Assembly (NCBI GenBank): GCA_963717505.1
Contig: OY970342.1
Span: 1,280,001 to 1,344,000 of the forward strand
DNA length: 64,000 nucleotides
Origin: Candidatus Eiseniibacteriota bacterium
Lineage (GTDB): Bacteria; Eisenbacteria; RBG-16-71-46
Direction: 5' to 3'
The translations under genes were made by a program, and so were the position numbers. Each line of letters opens with the position of its first letter. The first letter of the stretch is position 1. Shown here piece by piece: positions 4,050-63,610 of this stretch. The notes under the pieces are model-generated. The model did no database searches. It saw only the letters and a program-made list of their open reading frames with translations, and was not told the DNA's origin.

Positions 4050-4540
4050 CAATCGAACTCGCGCACCGGTGGCGGCTGGTCGGGCCCGACGCGGCCGGTT
4101 TCGATGTTGGCGCGGAAGTAGTTCTCGCCCTTGACCGGCGAGCCCGCGAGCCGCCGGAGCATGGTGAGCTGACCGGTGTGGGTCAGCGCGTCGGCGATCG
4201 GGCCGGCCAGGATGCGTTCGGCCGGCGCCCCAAGCGGCGCGTTGGAAGCGAGCGATTCGTCGAGCGATTTCAAAGTCGCGAAGAATCGCTCGACCTCGCG
4301 GTCCCACGGCAGTGGGTCGTGCTTCGGCCACGCTTCCTTGCCGCGCACGTGCGACAGCGCCCAGTCCATCAGGTCCCCGATGTGCGCGAGGATCTCGATC
4401 GGCGTGCGCGTGCTCGGCCCGGATTTGAACTCGGCGAAGTCAGCGGGCGCCCCGCGCACCGCCTTGCCGCAGCGGTACGCGAGTACCGCCACGGCATGGC
4501 GCAACAGCGCGCGGGCTCCCTGTGATTCGCCTACGAGCAC
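4049..4540 (-). CDS. DinB/DUF664-like four-helix bundle protein
   Basis: '[10 protein letters not shown]' and '[17 protein letters not shown]' motifs; GTG start overlapping nrdJ end. Confidence 0.75.
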
Positions 4541-7500
4541 CCCATCGAGTTGCCGCAGTTCAGGCACTTGAAGCACGTGCCGTTGCGGATCGTGATGTGC
4601 CCGCAGTGGTCGCACATCGGCGTGTCGCCCGAGAACTTGCTTGCGCTGGTACTCGACGCCACCGTCCCCGGTGCCGACCGCACTCGTCGAAACGTCGGGG
4701 CGAACCGGCGCGGGCGCCGTGGGTGCCGCCCAGCCGGAGCCGCAGCCGCCGGCTTCGAATGCCCATTGCCGTTCCCGCCGTTCGCGCGGTGCTCGTAGCC
4801 GACCGGGTGCTGCGCGGCGGATTCCTTGGGCGCCAGCATGTCCTCGGGCACTACGTGCGCGAGATCGGTGCGGCCCAGGTATTCGAGACCGAGCACCCGG
4901 AACACGTAGTCGACCACGCTGGTGCACGCGCGAATGTTCTCGTGGCCGTCGACGCGACCGTGCGGCTCGAAGCGCGTGAACGTGAACTGGTCGACCAGGT
5001 CGTTGAGCGGCACGCCGTACTGGAGGCCCATCGACACCGAGATGGCGAAGCAATTCATCATGCTGCGGAACGCGGCGCCCTCCTTGTGCATGTCGATGAA
5101 GATCTCACCCAGGGTGCCGTCTTCGTATTCGCCGGTCCGCAGGAACAGTTTGTGTCCAGAGATGCGCGCCTCCTGCGTGAAGCCGTGGCGGCGGCGCGGC
5201 AAACGGCGCCGGCGCAGCTTGGGCGGGCCGGCCGTGGCCGTGTCTTCCGCCTTCTTGCTGGTGGCCAGCGGCTGGCTCAGCTTGCTGCCGTCGCGATAGA
5301 GCGCGACCGCCTTGATTCCCAGGCGCCACGACTCCATGTAGATCTTCTCGACCTCCTCGACCGTTGCCTCCGGAGGCAGATTCACCGTCTTGCTGATCGC
5401 GCCCGAGATGAACGGCTGAACCGCGCCCATCATGCGCACGTGGCCCATCGGCAGGATGAAACGCGTGCTGTGCGGGCCGCAGCGATTGGCGCAGTCGAAC
5501 ACCGGCAGGTGCTCAGGCTTGAGGCCGGGCGCACCCTCGACTGTCTGAGTGCCGCACACATACGCGTTGGCTTCCTCGATCTGGGCGTCGGTGAAACCGA
5601 GGAACGGCAGCACGTTGAACGTCGGCTTCTCGCGCTCGGCGGTGCCGACCCCGAGCCGGGTGAGCAGATCCTCACCGAGCATGCCGCGCCCGAAGGCGAA
5701 GCGCAGGTCGAGCATGCCGCGCAACGAGTCCTCGATCCGGTCGATTTCCGCCGGCTGAAGGCCGCGCGCGTGCAAGGTGTCGCGATTGATGTGCGGTGAA
5801 CCCTGCAGGGTTCCGCTCCCGATCGCGTGGCGCACGATGCGCTCGAGCGTCGGGTCATCGTAGCCGAGACGCTTGAGTGCTCCGGGCACCGACTGATTGA
5901 CGATCTTGAAGTAGCCGCCGCCGGCCAGCTTCTTGAACTTGACCAACGCGAAGTCAGGCTCGACGCCGGTCGTGTCGCAGTCCATGAGCAGGCCGATGGT
6001 CCCGGTCGGCGCCAACACCGTCGCCTGCGCGTTCCGGTAGCCGTGCTTCATGCCGAGCGTCACCGCACGATCCCAGCACTCGACCGCCGCGGCCTTCATC
6101 TCGCGCGGCGCGTACTGGTGGTCGATCGCGCGCGCGGCGTCGCGGTGGAGCCGCATGACCTCGAGCATCGAGTCGCGGTTGTGCGCGTACCCGGCGAACG
6201 AAGCCTTGCTCGCCGCCATCTCGGCCGAGAGCGCGTAGGCCTCGCCGGTCATCATCGCGGTGATGCACGCCGCGTAGCCGCGCGCCGCCTCGCTGTCGTA
6301 AGGCAGGCCTTGCACCATGAGCAGCGTGCCCAGGTTGGCGTAGCCGAGCCCGAGCGGACGGTATTCGTGCGAGCGCTTGCCGATCCTCTCGGTGGGATAC
6401 GACGCGAAGTCGACCAGGATCTCCTGCGCCATGAAGAACACGCGATTCGCGTGCCGGTAGCCCTCGATGTCGAAGCCGCTGTCGTCGCGCACGAATTTCA
6501 TCAGATTGACCGACGCCAGATTGCATGCGGTGTCGTCCAAGAAGACAAATTCGGAGCACGGATTGGTCGCTTGAATGCGATCGGTCGCCTTGCACGTGTG
6601 CCACTTCTGGATGGTGTCGTCGAACTGGACGCCGGGGTCGGCGCACTGCCACGCCGCGTTCGCGATCTGATTCCACAGCTCGCGCGCCGGCTGCGTCTTC
6701 CACACCTTGCCGGTGGTGCGCAGCGTCGTGCTCCACGGCCCATCGGCGAGCACGGACTCCATGAACCGGTCGGGCACGCGCACCGAGTTGTTCGAGTTCT
6801 GGCCCGAAACGGTCGCGTAGGCGTCGCCGTTGAAGTCCGAGGAATAGCCGGCGGCGACCAGGGCCGCGACCTTCTTCTCCTCGCGCACCTTCCAGTTGAC
6901 GAACTCCTCGATCTCGGGGTGGTCCATGTCGAGCACCACCATCTTGGCGGCGCGCCGCGTGGTGCCGCCCGACTTGGTGGCGCCCGCGCCCCGGTCGAGC
7001 ACCTCGAGGAACGACATCAGGCCCGACGAGGTGCCGCCGCCCGAGAGCTTTTCCATGCGCCCGCGCAGCTTCGAGAAGTTGGTGCCAGTGCCCGAGCCGA
7101 ACTTGAAGACCCGCGCCTCGTTGCGCGCCAGATCGAAGATCGACATCAGGTCGTCGCCGACCGACTGGATGAAGCAGGCCGAAACCTGGGGCCGCGAATA
7201 CGAATCCTTGGTGACCTGGACCTCGCCGGTCGCGAGGTCGGTGTAGAAGTTCCCGCCCGAGCCCTGGATGGCGTACTCGTGCCACAGGCCGCAGTTGAAC
7301 CACACCGGGGAATTGAACGCGCCGACCTGGTGCACCAGCATGTAGGCCAGCTCGCTCTCGAAGGCGTCGGCATCCTCGCGGGTCGCGAAGTAGCCGCCCT
7401 GCTCCTCGCCCGAGCGGCGAATGGTGTGGGCGATCCGGTGGACGACCTGGCGCACGCTGGTCTCGTGGCCGGGGGTCGCGGGCAAGCCCGCCTTGCGGAA

Positions 7501-7734
7501 GTACTTGCTGACGACGATGTCGGTGGCGAGCTGGGACCACTCCGCCGGCACCTCGACGTCGTCCATGCGAAAGACGACCGAGCCGTCGGGGTTGGTGATC
7601 ACCGTGCGGCGGCGCTCCCAGACCACCTCGTCGAGCGGGTTGGCCCCGCGGCGGGTCCAGCGGCGCGGTACGCGCAAGCCTCGTCCGGCAAGGTCGGAGG
7701 TCGCGGCGGAATCCTTGAGAATCGTGTTGCTCAT
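4531..7734 (-). CDS. nrdJ: Adenosylcobalamin-dependent (class II) ribonucleotide reductase with TSCPD domain and C-terminal Cys cluster
   Basis: 'FNSPVWFN', 'SACFI', 'TNPCSE', 'APTGT', 'ISKTVN', 'YRDGSK', C-terminal 'CDHCG...[14 protein letters not shown]'; SD GGAGG upstream. Confidence 0.96.
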
Positions 7735-7960: not shown

Positions 7961-8285
7961 CGTTTTTCAGATCGAATGACGCGGCCTCGATCGAGGTCGC
8001 GACGTTTCGATCAGGTTTCAGCGGCGTTACGAGCGATCGTCTCGCTTCGACCCGTGGAACGGTCGCCGTGAAACGTGACCTAGAAATGACCTGCTGCATG
8101 ACCCAAACCCCGCGGTACTCGTTCCGAAATCCGGTCACGGGCTTCGGATATCCGTCAGGAGATTACGCCCATCGCAGCGAGTGCACAAGCGTGCAGGTCG
8201 GGGCCGTCGTCCGGACGTTGCTCCTGCGAGGCCTTGCTCGGGTTAGTCTCGCGAGGTCGATTCCCCCAATCGGAGGAGGCAACGC

Positions 8286-8726
8286 ATGATCAAGCGCACA
8301 GGATCAGCAGTCTGGAACGGCGGTCTGAAGGACGGCAACGGCTCACTCACCACTGGTAGCAAGACACTCAACCAGACCCCGTACTCGTTCACCTCCCGCT
8401 TCGAGAGTGGTCAGGGCACCAACCCCGAGGAGCTGGTCGCGGCGGCGCACGCCGGATGTTTCTCGATGGCGTTGTCGGTCAAGCTGGCCGAAGCGGGAAT
8501 GAAGCCCGAACGGATCGAGACCACCGCCACCGCGACGCTCGACAAGACCGACGCCGGCATGACGGTGACCGCGATTCACCTGGACCTGATCGCCGACGTT
8601 CCCAACGCGGACCCGGCCAAGTTCGAGGCCGCGGCACGATTGACCAAGGACACCTGCATCATCTCGCGCCTGCTGAACACCAAGATCACGCTCGAGGCCA
8701 AACTGCGGAGCAGCTCGCGGGCGTAG
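8286..8726 (+). CDS. osmC: OsmC family peroxiredoxin
   Basis: 'GTNPEEL.AAAHAGCFSMAL' and second Cys 'TCIISR'; SD GGAGG. Confidence 0.95.
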   Translation: MIKRTGSAVWNGGLKDGNGSLTTGSKTLNQTPYSFTSRFESGQGTNPEELVAAAHAGCFSMALSVKLAEAGMKPERIETTATATLDKTDAGMTVTAIHLDLIADVPNADPAKFEAAARLTKDTCIISRLLNTKITLEAKLRSSSRA

Positions 8727-8834
8727 TCACGGTCTGGGAGGTAGGGCCTTCGAGCCGCGCCGGGGTCGGTTTGGCCCGCGCTCGTGGCAGCTTCTTGCAG
8801 GCGGCGGTCGCTTCGGCTTAGATATTCGAGGTGT

Positions 8835-9100
8835 TCATCCGCGGCGCTCCTTCGGGAGTAGGCGCGGCGGAATCTCGCGGTCTGGGCGGCCGGGAGATCC
8901 GGGCGGGTTGGGACCCGCCGAGCGTGGCACGCCCGAACAGGAGGTGATCCCTTGGGTAGTTCCAGCGGCTTGATCGAGGTGGCGGCCCCGTAGGGGTAGA
9001 CCTCGAAGCGCGTGGCGCTCACGCGGGACACCCCGTTCCGGGGAACCCAACGCCACCAGATCATCGCAAAGGCCCCGGCGTGCAAACGCCGGGGCCTTCT
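8835..9100 (+). ncRNA. Candidate structured RNA (unknown family) containing AGGAGGTGATCC and a 13-codon sORF
   Basis: At least 7 stems including a cUUCGg tetraloop, long-range closing helices, ending at a terminator; no credible long ORF. Confidence 0.5.
9069..9100. terminator. Intrinsic terminator, probably bidirectional
   Basis: Perfect 13-bp stem AAGGCCCCGGCGT-GCAA-ACGCCGGGGCCTT with GNRA loop. Confidence 0.85.
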
Positions 9101-10710
9101 CATTGCCGCCGGGTGCCCCAGGGTCCGCGGATCGCGAACGTGATCCCCGGGTTCTGAATGTTCACGAACAGGGTCTCGCCATCCGGCGAGAAGCAGACGC
9201 CGGCCAGCTCGGAGCGGTTGATCGCGTTGCGCGCGAGCACGTAAAGCCCTCCGCGCGGCGTCAGGCCGACCAGGCGGTCGTCGTCGCAGCCGTCTTCCGC
9301 CGCGATCACGTCGCCGTGTGGCGCGTTGCACAGGTTGTCGGGACCATCGAGCAGCGATCGATCATTGGGCTCGACCACCAGCGTCAGCTCGTTCTTGACC
9401 ACGTCGAGCTTCCACACCTGTCCCGCGCGGGCCGGGCCGCCATTGGTGCAGCACAGGAAGACGGCGCGCTTGGTGTCGTCGAAGCTCATGCCCTCGCCGC
9501 GCGCGAACTGCGCGGCCCCCAGCCGATGACCCTGAGCGCGCGTGGAAGTCGGCGCCGTGCGCTCGATCAATTCCTTGCGCTCGACGCCATGCTCGGCCGA
9601 TCCGGCCGCGGCCGGGTTGCGCAACGGATCATCCGGGTCGCGTTCCATGTCCATGTCCGGATCGATGTCGGGAATCCGCACCCAGGCGATCTTGAACGGC
9701 TTGCCGATCGGCACTTGTTCGGCTTCGGGAGTCGGACTGAAGGGCGCGGTCGCGGCGATCGCGCGCGTCTGGCACTCGAGCGCCGAGGGTACTTCGCCCG
9801 ACCAGTTCTGCGTGCGCGCCGAAGGGCGCTCGATGATGCGCAGCGCCTCGAGCACGCCGCCCTTGCCCAGGTCGCCGGCCGCCAGCTCGAGGGGCGCTTT
9901 CATCCCGGCCGAGACGACGTCCGGCCGGAAGCGATAGAGGAGGCCGTCCTCGCGATCCTCGCTCAGGTAGACGTAGCCGGATTTGGGATCAACGCACAGC
10001 GCCTCATGATAGAAGCGCCCCATGGCCACGATCGGCACCGGCTCGACCAGTTCCCGGGCGCGCGCGTCTACCTCGAACACGTAGCCGTGGCGGCGCTCGG
10101 CGAGCGGGGTGCGGTCATGGTTCACCGGATCCGCGGGCCCCGGCAGGTAGGTGCACTCCTCGGCGCTGAGCCAGCTGTCCCACGGGGTGGCGCCGCCAGC
10201 GCAGTTGCGGAACGTGCCGGAAAGGCTCGCGAACGAGTTCACCAGATAGTCGTCCTCGTCAATCCACAACGTCGTCGTCCCGCCGGTGCCGAGCGGGTCG
10301 TAGGGCCGCACGCGACCGGGATCGACGCGCTCGGTCATACCGATGTCGATCTCGTGGTTGCGCACCAGCGCGGTCAGGCCGCGCTGGATGCGAAACGCGG
10401 CCATGCCGTCGTGGAGCGGGGGCACCGGGTCCCCGTTCGTCAGCTTCATGCTGAATCGTTCGTGCTGGGGAGCGCCGTACATCGCGGTCGAGAACGCGCG
10501 ATACGAGAACCCGGCGGGCAGATCGAGCAATTGCTTGGGATCGGGGACCAGCGGACCGTAGCCGCGCACTGCCTGCGTGGCGCCATGGGCCATGCGCGCC
10601 AGGACGACATCGAGGCTCGCCGGCGCCAGCGCCGCCGCACCCGCCGCGGCCGAGAGTCCGAGGAACCGGCGCCGGTCGAGCCGCCGGCGCCGCGACCGCT
10701 CGGGGCTCAC
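9100..10710 (-). CDS. PhoX/DUF839-family Tat-exported alkaline phosphatase
   Basis: Tat signal 'DRRRFLG', 'HDGMAAF', 'VRNHE', 'NCAGG.TPW..WLSAEE', 'GRFYHEA', 'GPDN', 'SELAG..FSPDG'; GTG overlaps upstream TGA. Confidence 0.9.
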   Translation of the reverse strand: MSPERSRRRRLDRRRFLGLSAAAGAAALAPASLDVVLARMAHGATQAVRGYGPLVPDPKQLLDLPAGFSYRAFSTAMYGAPQHERFSMKLTNGDPVPPLHDGMAAFRIQRGLTALVRNHEIDIGMTERVDPGRVRPYDPLGTGGTTTLWIDEDDYLVNSFASLSGTFRNCAGGATPWDSWLSAEECTYLPGPADPVNHDRTPLAERRHGYVFEVDARARELVEPVPIVAMGRFYHEALCVDPKSGYVYLSEDREDGLLYRFRPDVVSAGMKAPLELAAGDLGKGGVLEALRIIERPSARTQNWSGEVPSALECQTRAIAATAPFSPTPEAEQVPIGKPFKIAWVRIPDIDPDMDMERDPDDPLRNPAAAGSAEHGVERKELIERTAPTSTRAQGHRLGAAQFARGEGMSFDDTKRAVFLCCTNGGPARAGQVWKLDVVKNELTLVVEPNDRSLLDGPDNLCNAPHGDVIAAEDGCDDDRLVGLTPRGGLYVLARNAINRSELAGVCFSPDGETLFVNIQNPGITFAIRGPWGTRRQ

Positions 10711-11711
10711 CGCCAGCGCAGGGACGGTGACAGGTCGTCGCCGGTGCTCGATTGCTCGAAGCCCTGGCCGACGACCGCAGTCGTCCGGTTGTAGTTCCAC
10801 ACGTCGAGCTTGCCGACGCCGTCGGAGCGCGCGGACTGATACGAGATCACGTCGCCATTCAGGCTGATGCTCGGCCGGCGATCTTCGGCATCGGTGCTGG
10901 GCAGATCGAGGCGGGTGAGCGACGAGTCCGAGAAATCGAACAGGTAGAGATCGAGATCTCCCTCGCCACCCGCGCGATCCGAGGCGAAGCACAGGAATCG
11001 CCCGTTGCCCGACAGCGACGGGTCGAGGTCGCGATCCGGAGAGATCAGGTCGGGCAGGTCGAGCAGCCCGAGACCCCGCCGCCAGACCAGCACGTCGGGG
11101 TTGCCATTGCGATCGGAGACAAACGCGATGGTGGTCGCGTCGTGACTGGGCGTGGGCGACATGTCGTTGAAGGCGGCCGTGGTGTCGAGCCCGGGCAGGG
11201 CCAACAGCGTGTCAGGTACGCCGTCCATCAACCGGATCCGCCGGAAGCCGCCGACCTGTTGGACGAAGGCCAGCTTGAGCAGGTCGCCGGAGAACTCGGG
11301 CTCGGTTTCGTCGTTCGCGGTGTTGACCCCGGGCAGCGCGACCAGTCCTGGAGGATTTGGTGCGCGATCGTAGAGCAGGATGTCGATGCCGGTTCCCCCG
11401 CCTCGAGCGCTCTCGAATGCGATCAGCCGCCCATTGCTCGAGATCGTCGGATTCAGGTCGGGGGCCGTGACGCTGTTCAGGTTGGGCACCGAGCGAAATC
11501 CGAGCTGATCCAGGTCGTACAGGTAGATGTCGAACTGACCCGGAATCTGGTTGCGGTCGCTCGAATAGACGACCAGGTGCTCGCCGCTCGAGTCTCCACC
11601 CGACGATGAAGTCGTGGCGTCGCACCCCGCGAGGGCAATCAAGGCGCACGCCAGCAGCCAGCCCGGCCGGGCGTTCTCCTGGGTCCCTGGCAAGCTCAGC
11701 CCTCCAGTCAT
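10707..11711 (-). CDS. TolB-like PD40 beta-propeller lipoprotein
   Basis: Lipobox 'LAGC'; repeated 'P.IS.NG..IAF.S.R.G..DIYLYD' blades. Confidence 0.85.
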   Translation of the reverse strand: MTGGLSLPGTQENARPGWLLACALIALAGCDATTSSSGGDSSGEHLVVYSSDRNQIPGQFDIYLYDLDQLGFRSVPNLNSVTAPDLNPTISSNGRLIAFESARGGGTGIDILLYDRAPNPPGLVALPGVNTANDETEPEFSGDLLKLAFVQQVGGFRRIRLMDGVPDTLLALPGLDTTAAFNDMSPTPSHDATTIAFVSDRNGNPDVLVWRRGLGLLDLPDLISPDRDLDPSLSGNGRFLCFASDRAGGEGDLDLYLFDFSDSSLTRLDLPSTDAEDRRPSISLNGDVISYQSARSDGVGKLDVWNYNRTTAVVGQGFEQSSTGDDLSPSLRWR

Positions 11712-60947: not shown

Positions 60948-63610
60948 CGCGACGCCCCTGTCCACGCGACACCGACCTCGATCCGGCGCGGAGCGAAGTA
61001 GGTCGAGGGGTCCGACAACGTGATCATGTCCCCGTAGGTCGGAACCCGCGTGTAATAGGGACTGCCCGAGCTGTTGAAGACGTGGCCGTTGTCGAAGCGC
61101 TGGTCGAACAGATTGAGGATGCGAGCGAACAGGCTGAACCGGGTTGGCCGGCCCCCGCCGATGAACTTCTCGCCCCGCACGTCGACCAAGGTCGAAGCCG
61201 GTTTGCGTCCCGAGTTCGTCTCCAGCTCGCCGCCGAACGAGGGGTCGAGTTCCGGGGTGTACGGCTGGCCGCTGCCGTAGCGGACCACGGTGCTCAGGTA
61301 GTAGCTCTCGGGCCGTGCGACCGTGACCGTCAGGTTGAGGGTGTGGCGCTGGTCCCAGTTCAGGTAGATCTGCCGCGGCCGCGGATCCTCCTTGGCGTCG
61401 ACCCGTGCGGCGAGTTCGTAGGGGTCGCTGGCGTTGCCCTTGGCCACCTGCCAGGTGTAGTCGATCGTACTGCTCACCGGCCCCGCCGCCCGCTGATCGA
61501 GCGCGATGGTCATCCCGATCACGCTGCCGAAGTCTGCGTTGGTCAGGCGCTTGTACTCGGCGTTGTTGTAGGTGGTGATGATCTCGGCGCCGAGCAGGTC
61601 GCGGATGTCCTTGTAGAAGAGCGAGAGGTCGAGACCGAGCCACGGCTTGATCTCCTGCCGGTAGCCGAACTGGTACTGGACCGTGCGCTCGGGTTTGACG
61701 TCGGGGTTGCCCAGCACGCCGAAATCGCGGCCGGAGCTGGCCTGCAGGTTCGCGAGCACGTCGTAGTTGGCGTTCCGGTAGATGTCGCCGAGCGGGGGCA
61801 TCTGATAGAAGTGGCCGTACGCGAAGAACAGCGACGACTTGGGCGTCACCGGATAGGAAACGCCGAGGCGTGGAGCCAGCGTCAGCTTGCGGGTGGCCGG
61901 AACGAACTCGGACTGCGGTGCGCCGGCGATGCTGTTGGCGGGATTTCGCGGGTCGCTCGGGACGCCGGTCTTGGGCGCGAAGTACTCGAACCGGAGCCCG
62001 GCGCGCAATTTAAGATCATTCCACTCCAGCTCGTCCTGGGCGTAGGCGGTGCCGACGACCGGCCGGTACTCCTGGGGCTCGTACCAGTCCGGAGGCTGGT
62101 GCAGCTTGCGGACCACGACGCCGCTGCTGTCCACCAGATGGCCGGGCGTGCCGAACTTGAGATAGGTCGGCTGCCACTCGATGCCCGCCTTCATCTGATG
62201 GTCGGGCGCGAAGTACCGCGTGAACGACCCGCCGATCACCGCCGCGTTCGTGACCTGCACGAACCGGGCCCAGTCGGCGCCGTTGATGTAGGCATCCAGC
62301 TCGTAGCCTTCGTCCTTCTCGGCCGGACCCGCGGCGTCGTAGCGCGGGTCGTACACGTCGTCGTACAGCATGTCCTGGTACTCGAAGTAGTTCTGCCGAA
62401 AGTTCAGCTTGTAGAACGTCTTTGGGTTCAAGGCGTGCGTCCAATCGAGGCCGTGGACGATCGAAAACGTGGTCTGCGTCGACAAGCCGTCCGGGTTGAG
62501 GCGAAAGGCCCACGTGTCCTTGCGGGACTCGATCCGATTGGTGATCACCTGATACCCGAGCTCGCCGGGCAGCGATCGATTGGTGATCTTGGCGAGCCCC
62601 TGCAATTCCCGCGAGTACCCGAGCGGCAAGCGCGCGCCGTCACCGGTCGGGTGGTAGACGTTGTTCTCCACATCCGACCGGTCGGTCGGCAGGAACCGGC
62701 GTTCGGCGTAGACCGGGCCGTTGCTGGTGCCGCGCCGGCCGTTGATCAGGAAGAGCGTCTTGGGCAACCCGGTGGGCCCGCTGAGCGAGAGCTGAAAGTT
62801 CCTGAGACTGCCGGGCTCGGCCTCGTAGTCCTGGGGCCGCTCGGCCGAGGGATAGAAGAAGTCCCCGCCGAACATCTCGCCGGACCACTCGAAGTTCTGA
62901 CTTCCGCGCCGCAACACCGCGTTGACCACCCCGCTCATCGCGTGCCCGTACTCCGCGTCGAACGTGCCGCTGATCACCTGGACTTCTTCGAGCACCGAGC
63001 GGTCGAGCTGCAGGCTGGAGAGGTTGTCGTACGGGTTGTTCACGCTGACACCGTCGACCTGGTATTGGACCTCGCCGAGCCGTCCGCCGCGGAAGTGGCC
63101 GTCGACCACGCCGGCCTGCAGCTCGACCACATCGGCCAGCTCCTGCACCGGCAAGCGCGCGATCTCCTCGCGGGTCACGGTCGCAATGTTGCTGGTCAGT
63201 CCCAGCTCGACCACCGGGCGCTGCGCGCTGACCACGATCTCCTCGAGCGCCACGGCCTCTTCCTGCAGGACCAGATCCTGAGTCGTGGTGCGGTCGGCCG
63301 GGATCGAGACGCCGGTCGTCGTGATCGTCTGATGACCGATGAAGCTCGCCTTGACCGAGTACGTGCCGGCCGGGACGTTGAAGATGGCGTAGCGGCCTTC
63401 GAGGTCGGTGATCGCGCCGAGCGGAACTCCGACCAGGATCACGTTGACGCCGGCCAGGGGCTGTTTCTGCGCGTCGCGCACGACGCCGGTGAGCTTGCCC
63501 GTCGTCCCTGCCTCGGAGCGAGCCGCGAGAGCCGAGACGAACGCGATCAAGAAAACCGCGACGACCGTTCCGAAGCGGACCCCCGCCGGCACGGTCGTCG
63601 CCCGGTTCAC
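60944..63610 (-). CDS. TonB-dependent receptor with N-terminal carboxypeptidase-regulatory-like domain
   Basis: 'TGKLTGVV.D....LAGVNV', plug 'HFRGGR..EVQY.VDG', 'GTFDAEYG..MSGVVN', 'PRLGVSYP', 'PRRIEVG'; GTGA overlap. Confidence 0.92.
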   Translation of the reverse strand: MNRATTVPAGVRFGTVVAVFLIAFVSALAARSEAGTTGKLTGVVRDAQKQPLAGVNVILVGVPLGAITDLEGRYAIFNVPAGTYSVKASFIGHQTITTTGVSIPADRTTTQDLVLQEEAVALEEIVVSAQRPVVELGLTSNIATVTREEIARLPVQELADVVELQAGVVDGHFRGGRLGEVQYQVDGVSVNNPYDNLSSLQLDRSVLEEVQVISGTFDAEYGHAMSGVVNAVLRRGSQNFEWSGEMFGGDFFYPSAERPQDYEAEPGSLRNFQLSLSGPTGLPKTLFLINGRRGTSNGPVYAERRFLPTDRSDVENNVYHPTGDGARLPLGYSRELQGLAKITNRSLPGELGYQVITNRIESRKDTWAFRLNPDGLSTQTTFSIVHGLDWTHALNPKTFYKLNFRQNYFEYQDMLYDDVYDPRYDAAGPAEKDEGYELDAYINGADWARFVQVTNAAVIGGSFTRYFAPDHQMKAGIEWQPTYLKFGTPGHLVDSSGVVVRKLHQPPDWYEPQEYRPVVGTAYAQDELEWNDLKLRAGLRFEYFAPKTGVPSDPRNPANSIAGAPQSEFVPATRKLTLAPRLGVSYPVTPKSSLFFAYGHFYQMPPLGDIYRNANYDVLANLQASSGRDFGVLGNPDVKPERTVQYQFGYRQEIKPWLGLDLSLFYKDIRDLLGAEIITTYNNAEYKRLTNADFGSVIGMTIALDQRAAGPVSSTIDYTWQVAKGNASDPYELAARVDAKEDPRPRQIYLNWDQRHTLNLTVTVARPESYYLSTVVRYGSGQPYTPELDPSFGGELETNSGRKPASTLVDVRGEKFIGGGRPTRFSLFARILNLFDQRFDNGHVFNSSGSPYYTRVPTYGDMITLSDPSTYFAPRRIEVGVAWTGASR

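Follow-up and report, generated by a model that had tools for sequence, protein, structure and literature searches.

The window analysed here, 64,000 nucleotides of contig OY970342.1 from a Candidatus Eisenbacteria genome, carries a conserved small RNA gene of this phylum, and the window copy is the "long form" of a phylum-spanning family. The gene lies in the 370-bp gap between two convergent genes, OsmC (8286-8726, + strand) and PhoX (9100-10992, - strand). Sequence comparison identifies it as a free-standing gene of about 270 nt, running roughly from 8831 to 9100 on the + strand, with a promoter inferred by alignment. At its centre stands an extended Shine-Dalgarno (SD) tract, AGGAGGTGATCC, which is followed by a small open reading frame (mini-ORF) with a TTG start codon 7 bases past GGAGG, 13 codons and a TAG stop codon at 8991-8993, encoding MGSSSGLIEVAAP. 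An initial annotation, made from the sequence alone, had described this 13-residue frame in the same terms, and had proposed that the gap holds an unannotated structured RNA; this proposal is borne out by the lack of an Rfam match and by covarying structure, and the varied neighbouring genes suggest that the RNA is independently transcribed.

The element represents the second family of RNAs that combine a long SD with a mini-ORF, now in an uncultured phylum, of which about 60% of the available genomes have one copy. The first such family comprises the rre genes, among them rreB of Bradyrhizobiaceae and rreR of Rhodobacterales, which were reported in alpha-proteobacteria only (PMC5711450; Hahn et al., RNA Biol 2016/17). 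Common to both families are a long tract, a weak start codon and an ORF of about 14 codons, and this recurrence shows that the design itself is under selection and is not the curiosity of one lineage.

Conservation of the tract, the start codon and the open frame

The tract AGGAGGTGATCC is the exact 12-nt reverse complement of the 16S rRNA 3' end (...GGATCACCTCCTTTCT) of the same genome, whose single 16S gene is located outside the element; the perfect complementarity claimed initially thus matches the genome's own 16S tail. In the 4.16-Mb genome, this 12-mer occurs at 2 sites, the element and the rDNA, with 0.47 expected by chance. A single genome alone therefore proves nothing, and the weight of the argument comes from conservation. 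When the gap was compared by blastn with 61 related genomes, 17 homologues with 68-76% identity were confirmed in other genera of the same family, and an exact-pattern scan using one genome per species returned 37 stretches, most of them in records whose title names Candidatus Eisenbacteria. A covariance model of 39 distinct sequences gave hits in 42 of the 151 phylum genomes sampled; these hits were confined to families f1 (36/59), f17 (4/12) and f8 (1/1) and to the window's own genome. In all, 52 distinct long-form sequences were collected.

Two signatures extended the family further. The 16-nt signature AGGAGGTGRTCCNDTG was found in 131 of 206 phylum genomes, with a handful of matches in the reversed control, and a few of its sites are ordinary long-SD genes (FBPase, DUF6999 and a HicB-like protein). 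A strict signature that joins long SD, start codon and GAGGTG, AGGAGGTGRTCCNDTGN{15,45}GAGGTG, was found in 124 of 206 genomes and had 0 matches in the reversed control, which excludes chance. It occurs essentially once per genome, one genome having two copies, at contig ends. By family, the strict signature was present in f1 63/88, f11 38/41, f3 7/10, f12 3/3, f14 2/2, f17 4/15, f6 1/1, f8 1/2, f15 1/6, f16 2/13 and f18 1/3, and in f2 0/3, f10 0/8, f13 0/5, f7 0/2 and f4, f5 and f9 0/1 each; these tallies take in genome G038 (f3), flagged unpublished, which no other claim uses.

These counts bear on the explanation that the element is a type I toxin mRNA, a fragment of rRNA or a chance match. 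Its attractions are the 12-mer expectation of 0.47 in one genome and a start codon masked by a structured 5' region, a trait of type I toxin mRNAs. Such mRNAs encode a hydrophobic membrane peptide, usually of 20-60 residues, and are paired with an antisense RNA. The peptide of the element has 13-14 residues (13 in the window), is hydrophilic, without a hydrophobic stretch, and varies between families, and the element is single-copy; on these grounds, and with no search made for an antisense gene, the type-I-toxin-like architecture suggested initially is not supported. A fragment of rRNA is at odds with the lack of an Rfam match at this site and with a 16S gene that lies elsewhere, and chance is at odds with the 124 genomes against a control of 0. 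We consider this explanation extremely improbable.

The element is single-copy in its own genome, which also rules out a repeat or mobile element, and none of the 42 GGAGGTG[AG]TC sites of that genome is a short-form paralogue. The 11-mer GGAGGTGATCC has its sole other non-rDNA copy outside the window, at G000:C1:2070590 (+; G000 is the window's genome), with no start codon 4-11 nt past GGAGG.

In most families the gene takes a short form that lacks the 5' domain; the window's long form adds helices P1-P3 (Table 1) in front. The short form consists of a TTGACA promoter, a short leader, ACGCGGAAAGGAGGTGGTCCA, 11-17 codons, GCGGAGGTGGC and a stop codon 10-11 nt past GGAGG, followed 3' of the stop by a hairpin, GCGAAUCCCAAC, CAGCCCACCGGAG and a terminator. 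The f1 genomes examined have one form or the other, and 8 short-form f1 genomes that were also searched with the covariance model gave no hit. One f1 short form (L097; G116:C99, ~63075-63282) has a tract, AGAAAGGAGGTGGTCC, that complements all 16 terminal 16S bases with one G.U, and a 15-codon ORF. A weak second model hit of 32 bits, L098 (G028:C20:215709-215869), lies ~7 kb upstream of the full copy of that genome, resembles the 5' domain (P2 and P3) alone and lacks both SD and ORF; possibly it is what is left of a decayed partial duplication.

The complement to 16S is longer in relatives than in the window. The long-form consensus, AAAGGAGGTGATCCA, has 15 nt, and the short-form complement, GAAAGGAGGTGGTCCAG, has 17 nt with one G.U; in ACGCGGAAAGGAGGTGGTCCA, these 17 nt extend to the G of the GTG start. 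The window tract ends 1 nt short of TTG (CC-C-TTG), and relatives with CCAGTG, in which the complement reaches into the first base of GTG, were found in f8, f11 and f3 and in a transcript contig of run X12. Within the AGGAGGTGATCC core, the 52 sequences vary at one site only, an A-to-G change in 7 of them (GGTGGTCC) that faces a 16S U, so that pairing is retained as G.U. The 16S tails are unchanged in G094 and G100, the two A-to-G genomes in which the tail was readable. The long complement to the anti-SD is under strong selection.

Very long SDs are not exclusive to the small RNA. A DUF6999 gene (L125; G043:C115, ~600-1500, - strand; Pfam E = 4e-109) starts with GTG behind 12 nt of anti-SD complement. 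Its 16-mer AGGAGGTGATCCCGTG, or the GGTCC variant of it, is found again in at least seven other genomes of the phylum, the former in G032, G141, G127, G125, G085 and G087 and the variant in G035; among these sites, Pfam covered L125 alone. FBPase and HicB-like antitoxin genes at L105 (G111) and L121 (G061) have AGGAGGTG[AG]TCC and then ATG.

The mini-ORF is open in 52 of 52 long-form sequences, with 14 codons in 51 of them; owing to an in-frame deletion of 3 nt, the window has 13. Over the first 39 sequences, the ORF frame carries stops in 0/39 compared with 14/39 and 32/39 for the other two frames. Moreover, the frame is open in 26 further family members, some of which overlap with the 52, at 11-17 codons. 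Among covariance-model hits, f1 and f17 have TTG as the start codon and f8 has GTG, and ATG also occurs among pattern hits; that a start codon is always present is an unbiased statement solely for covariance-model and blastn hits. Towards the end of the frame, GAGGTG is kept in every member found save G054 (AAGGTG), and in the families examined the stop codon lies 10-11 nt past GGAGG (GAGG in some families). The frame in which this motif is read differs between families, being GAG-GTG for f1, f12, f16 and others, GGA-GGT-G for f11 and f3, and G-AGG-TG for f14, and the peptides are unrelated from one family to the next (MDSSRLGSVEVASS, MHKCGRRISGGGCS, MPSSITGSTEDRGGGSS and MRKPTSEVPER). Since one motif is read in three frames, it is the RNA and a short open frame that are conserved phylum-wide, and not the peptide. 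Structure and peptide, either of which the initial annotation had considered worth checking for conservation, thus part company across families.

These data also allow the peptide itself to be weighed as the functional product, in which case the RNA would simply be a very stable and highly structured mRNA from which a strong ribosome-binding site drives synthesis of a micro-protein of 13-14 residues. The constant openness and near-constant length of the frame, whose sole change of length in the window is in-frame, agree with this idea, as does the second codon position being the least variable among the variable codons. In addition, codon 4 specifies serine through TCN as well as AGY codons, members of f1 share a conserved C-terminus, VEVA[ST]S, and the RreB and RreR peptides show conservation inside their respective clades (PMC5711450). 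The unrelated peptides and the three reading frames of GAGGTG argue against it, and so does the 3' half of the frame: in codons 8-14, wobble positions never vary and changes are at first positions, one of which (GCG to ACG) covaries with the partner strand of helix P5, so that this half is constrained as RNA. Synthetic RreB and RreR peptides were, furthermore, unstructured (PMC5711450). A functional peptide is therefore regarded as quite unlikely.

Fold, covariation and transcription unit

The sequence 8831-9100 folds with a z score of -4.68, and 0 of 200 shuffles folded as well; over the gap 8727-9105, the z score was -3.70 on the + strand compared with -2.11 on the - strand. The minimum free energy (MFE) fold contains hairpins 8839-8867 (UUCG loop), 8868-8901 and 8902-8919 and the 13-bp terminator hairpin 9069-9098, all of which had been anticipated in the initial annotation. 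For covariation, the pairs of a named structure (Table 1) were counted over the 52 long-form sequences, with the 3' partners slid by 1-3 columns and 500 shuffles serving as controls. Standard pairs were found in 93.3% of cells, compared with 35-54% when partners were slid. In the same 52 sequences, 29 pairs change on both sides; the shuffled mean was 18.7, and 0 of 500 shuffles reached 29. In relatives, P3 reads GGAGGG/CCCUCC with a UUGGGU loop. Two further helices of the initial annotation did not survive the comparison: a local hairpin at 8974-9006 (GGAGG/CCUCC) is specific to the window, with a 3' partner that varies uncompensated in relatives, and so is a GGTGATC/GATCATC helix, the 3' sequence of which is absent from relatives. 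On the proposed switch of CGGGCG between two partners, covariation in this set speaks neither for nor against.

Helix P5 recurs across the phylum. Among 27 diverse family members, at least 7 of 8 pairs were formed in 27/27, a count somewhat flattered by a search that allowed a flexible register, and the inner triplets compensate between families (CUG/CAG, CAG/CUG, CGG/CCG, GCG/CGC and UUG/CAA). A P4-like helix was not clearly above chance across families, the longest averaging 5.26 nt compared with 4.42 nt when shuffled. P4 and the extension of P5 (P5ext) share one strand, the 3' strand of P4, and are mutually exclusive, an arrangement that is compatible with a conformational switch and does not amount to proof of one. 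Two pseudoknots, UGGGU of the P3 loop with ACCCA (9045-9049) and GGGC with GCCC, are possible tertiary contacts (97% and 94% paired, respectively); both sides of each are essentially invariant, and such invariance gives evidence neither way. A related motif of the ACCCA/AAUCCCAAC type is present in all families examined.

The predicted ensemble of the window pairs 8940-8942 with 8948-8950 and the start codon with 8934-8936, whereas 8937-8939 and 8943-8947 are ~90% unpaired. The initial idea that the tract is sequestered in its own fold is thus supported only in part. The candidate start-codon hairpin P4 is almost always paired in the long form but covaries in few of its pairs, and finds no cross-family support clearly above chance.

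Table 1. Features of the small RNA gene in the window; percentages give paired cells among long-form sequences
Feature	Position	Strand	Evidence and remarks
Inferred promoter	-35 TTGCAG 8795-8800; -10 TAGATA 8819-8824	+	Alignment to relatives; predicted start near 8831
P1, 5' hairpin, UUCG loop	8839-8867	+	6/7 pairs compensatory; 92% paired; window copy longer than those of relatives
P2 hairpin, apical region with invariant GGGC	8868-8901	+	6/7 pairs compensatory; 92% paired
P3, GGCGGG/CCCGCC, UUGGGA loop	8902-8919	+	3/6 pairs compensatory; 100% paired
Extended SD tract AGGAGGTGATCC	8939-8950	+	12-nt complement of 16S 3' tail
P4, candidate start-codon hairpin UCCCUUGGGU / GCUUGAUCGA	8948-8977	+	2/10 pairs covary; 95% paired (long form)
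Mini-ORF MGSSSGLIEVAAP	8952-8993	+	TTG start, 13 codons, TAG stop
Internal SD-like motif GAGGTGGCG	8976-8984	+	Its GGUGGCG is the 5' strand of P5
Invariant ACCCA	9045-9049	+	Unvaried in 52 sequences; short forms have AAUCCCAAC here
P5, GGUGGCG/CGCCACC	3' strand 9051-9057	+	1/8 pairs compensatory (GC to AU in 13 sequences); 96% paired
P5ext, GAUCA with 8971-8975 (UUCGGU/ACCGAA in the long-form set)	9059-9063	+	2/6 pairs covary; 92.5% paired
Intrinsic-terminator-like hairpin, 13 bp, GCAA loop	9069-9098	+	MFE folds; adjoins phoX stop codon; 9/12 pairs compensatory; 95% paired

Strong structural covariation would also be expected of a purely non-coding regulatory RNA, the tract of which would pair with C/U-rich seeds of other RNAs or with its own CCACC or CCCUCC, the ORF being incidental. 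Strands resembling the anti-SD, CCCUCC in P3 and CCACC in P5, are indeed present in the same RNA, and in short forms the SD and the internal motif both read GGAGGUGG, identical over 8 nt, so that CCACC could pair with either. Several features of the same sequences are hard to reconcile with an incidental ORF. A start codon stands at a fixed 7-nt spacing in every covariance-model or blastn hit; the frame is open throughout, compared with the stops counted above in the other two frames; and over 14-17 nt the complement follows 16S and takes in the first base of GTG starts, as in rreB. Finally, the covariation of P3 (GGCGGG/CCCGCC in the window) retains the helix itself and would not pair with the SD. 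We therefore view a non-coding RNA as an unlikely alternative.

Upstream of the element, 17 relatives (alignment A1) show a conserved TTGACA, a spacer of 17-18 nt and an nAnAnT box; the hexamers of the window are weaker than those of relatives (TTGCAG compared with TTGACA), and the T-run after the terminator hairpin of the window is poor. This hairpin ends 1-2 nt from the convergent phoX stop codon (9100), and on the - strand UUUGCGAU comes next; one hairpin may thus end both the small RNA and the phoX transcripts. When Pfam was run on the flanking ORFs at 17 other loci, the neighbours were all different and in either orientation; they included an aminotransferase, PPK2, TerB, a P-type ATPase, chorismate synthase, GGDEF proteins and others. 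Unrelated neighbours across loci point to a free-standing gene and not to the leader of a neighbouring gene. The short ORF followed by the alternative helices P4 and P5ext and a terminator hairpin does have the classical form of an attenuator, in which a leader peptide and a terminator would control a downstream gene in cis. Given that the next gene is the convergent phoX, whose stop codon the hairpin adjoins, and that flanking genes vary in identity and orientation at the 17 other loci, such a leader is highly unlikely.

The element is present in RNA libraries. Metatranscriptome contigs from three studies contain it over 8868-9038 (1 difference), 8914-9067 (1) and 8866-9082 (4), and a relative with a GTG start was found in metatranscriptome contigs at a depth of 27. 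Across 8300-9700, the RNA-library contigs leave osmC and phoX uncovered save for a 57-nt conserved piece (8415-8471, 5 mismatches); this pattern was not taken to show a discrete transcript. Of the RNA contigs, two that come from different studies start, without a loose end, at 8866 and 8868, and a DNA contig spans that point. This gives a weak hint of a 5' end after P1, which sits oddly with the covariation of P1, as the latter argues that P1 is transcribed.

Likeness to rre genes and a proposed mechanism

The closest published design is that of rreB, a 165-nt transcript with a 17-nt 16S complement that runs into the first base of a GTG start codon, followed by 14 codons (PMC5711450). This RNA co-sediments with 30S subunits, is weakly translated owing to the long tract and the GTG start, and is turned over in a ribosome-dependent manner, removal of the start codon stabilising it; a version with 14 nt of complementarity bound ribosomes much less than the 17-nt version (PMC5711450). 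Together, the two options offered by the initial annotation, a 30S-binding RNA or a switchable small-peptide mRNA, match what was shown for rreB. The ribosome sponge that it also entertained finds no support there, as 20-fold overexpression of rreB had no effect on growth (PMC5711450).

The likeness extends to several details. Both are small transcripts, the rre genes having an RpoD-type promoter and a terminator; the 16S complement is 16-17 nt in rre genes compared with 12 nt in the window and 14-17 nt in relatives. Both have weak, non-ATG start codons (a few members of the present family have ATG), with ORFs of 14 (rreB) or 18 (rreR) codons compared with 13-14 in the long form and 11-17 family-wide, and the window shares the small weak-start ORF with its 13 codons and TTG. 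In both systems the 3' part of the tract and the start codon lie in a predicted hairpin and the 5' part is free, the rreB start codon being reported in a hairpin. Peptides are likewise unrelated between clades, and gene context is unconserved between lineages, in both systems (PMC5711450). There are also differences. The complement of rre genes ends in the first base of GTG, as it does in the CCAGTG relatives and not in the window. The window form, at ~270 nt, is longer than rreB and has the extra covarying P1-P3 domain that is missing from the short form of the phylum. Moreover, the GAGGUG 10-11 nt before the stop codon, held in P5 with CCACC, and the AAUCCCAAC/ACCCA motif go unmentioned for rreB in the available part of the report. 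The element would thus work like an rre gene but is not filed as one, being likened to it by described design and not by sequence. The initial statement that no known family could be assigned accordingly holds as regards Rfam and needs amending in that a published kind exists, with which homology is not demonstrable.

These combined data make it probable, in our view, that the element is a 30S-docking small mRNA in which the mini-ORF matters as a translated stretch and translation would unwind P5. By analogy with rreB, we infer 30S binding, translation and a regulatory output for it. The single-stranded purine tract would dock on the 16S 3' tail in the 30S subunit through a duplex that exceeds an ordinary SD contact by far (12 bp for the window copy, 14-17 bp for relatives), and docking would place the weak start codon (UUG or GUG) in the P site. 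The mini-ORF of 11-17 codons would then be read as a stretch of fixed length, the peptide probably not being the selected product. As the 3' half of the ORF forms one strand of P5, a reading ribosome would have to unfold the RNA. Like rreB, the RNA would be held on the 30S subunit, poorly translated, and turned over in a ribosome-dependent manner.

A number of observations weigh against this docking mechanism or narrow what it rests on. The predicted ensemble has the start codon and part of the SD in base pairs, and the invariant wobble positions of codons 8-14 fit a constraint on the RNA and lend no support to a functional peptide. A consensus scan of 8650-9200 called 0 promoters and 0 terminators. 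The RNA-library contigs show presence only, giving neither strand, ends nor level, and such libraries can hold DNA. The signature is missing from 82 of 206 genomes, including 8/8 of genus g20 and 8/8 of family f10, although many genomes are incomplete and a miss does not show absence; the pattern hits, in turn, were preselected for a start codon and GAGGTG. With respect to rre genes, which were defined by at least 16 nt of perfect 16S complementarity directly upstream of a small ORF (PMC5711450), the 12 nt of the window fall short and the family is borderline (15 nt, or 17 nt with one G.U). Lastly, 30S binding, weak translation and ribosome-dependent decay were shown for rreB and are carried over to the element by analogy.

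A bolder version of the docking mechanism, which we hold to be doubtful, would make the element a device for "ribosome parking" or ribosome sensing, with an evolutionary origin separate from that of the alpha-proteobacterial rre genes. Here the free 5' half of the tract would serve as a toehold for the 16S tail, and full pairing over 14-17 bp would open the start-codon hairpin by strand displacement. One ribosome would read the fixed-length mini-ORF and unwind P5, and the freed CCACC might then pair with the true SD, which in short forms matches the internal GGAGGUGG over 8 nt, and so block a second initiation. The SD-like motif 10-11 nt before the stop codon could recapture the anti-SD of the terminating ribosome; by calculation, this spacing lies within the usual SD-to-P-site distance. 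The RNA would in this way hold or report a defined pool of 30S or 70S particles, to which the P1-P3 domain of the long form might add a ligand or protein input. If this were true, RNAs with an extended SD and a mini-ORF would form a general class of regulators directed at the ribosome, present in at least two phyla.

Whichever version applies, the present comparison goes beyond the original rre report in several respects: the RNA is conserved but the peptide is not, the tract admits only changes that keep 16S pairing, and a further SD-like motif, which keeps a constant distance from the stop codon, is held within a helix that covaries. The signature gives a means of searching other phyla for such genes, and the comparative data turn "function unknown" into concrete experiments on ribosome capture and release. 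No further reports of small mRNAs with SDs of 16-17 nt were found in the collection of papers searched; among the matches listed, there was no bacterial follow-up of rreB or rreR and no title on RNA genes of Eisenbacteria.

Other known systems share parts of the design. Dual-function small RNAs with a small ORF, namely RNAIII/hld, SgrS/SgrT and SR1/SR1P, resemble the element in being structured, independent small RNAs with a translatable short ORF. These RNAs have ordinary SDs, longer functional peptides and defined base-pairing targets, and to our knowledge none of them is defined by a 12-17-nt 16S complement. Transfer-messenger RNA (tmRNA) is likewise a structured RNA with a short internal frame and a stop codon in a hairpin region; unlike the element, it has a tRNA-like domain and neither SD nor start codon.

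Database matches and the surrounding genome

When 8000-10000 was searched with cmscan against Rfam 15 at E values up to 10, no relevant family was found, and only four weak matches were returned. Two of these touch the terminator hairpin, ar35 with 15.6 bits (cut-off 45) and the Rfam family P4 with 10.8 bits (cut-off 37), and the other two, mir-4888 and sR32, fall in the flanking genes. Pfam assigned no family to the ORFs that overlap the gap (8835-9056, - strand; 8831-8947, + strand). The 6S RNA and the tmRNA of the genome were found elsewhere, the latter (RF00023) at G000:C1:1691166-1691516 with 178.8 bits.

The window's genome is a single 4.16-Mb contig, yet its marker-gene completeness is 86.68%; this suggests that the marker set fits the phylum poorly and that the completeness of relatives may also be underestimated. 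Upstream of osmC, positions 4531-7734 of the window (- strand) encode a class II (B12-dependent) ribonucleotide reductase with a TSCPD domain, which looks ordinary.

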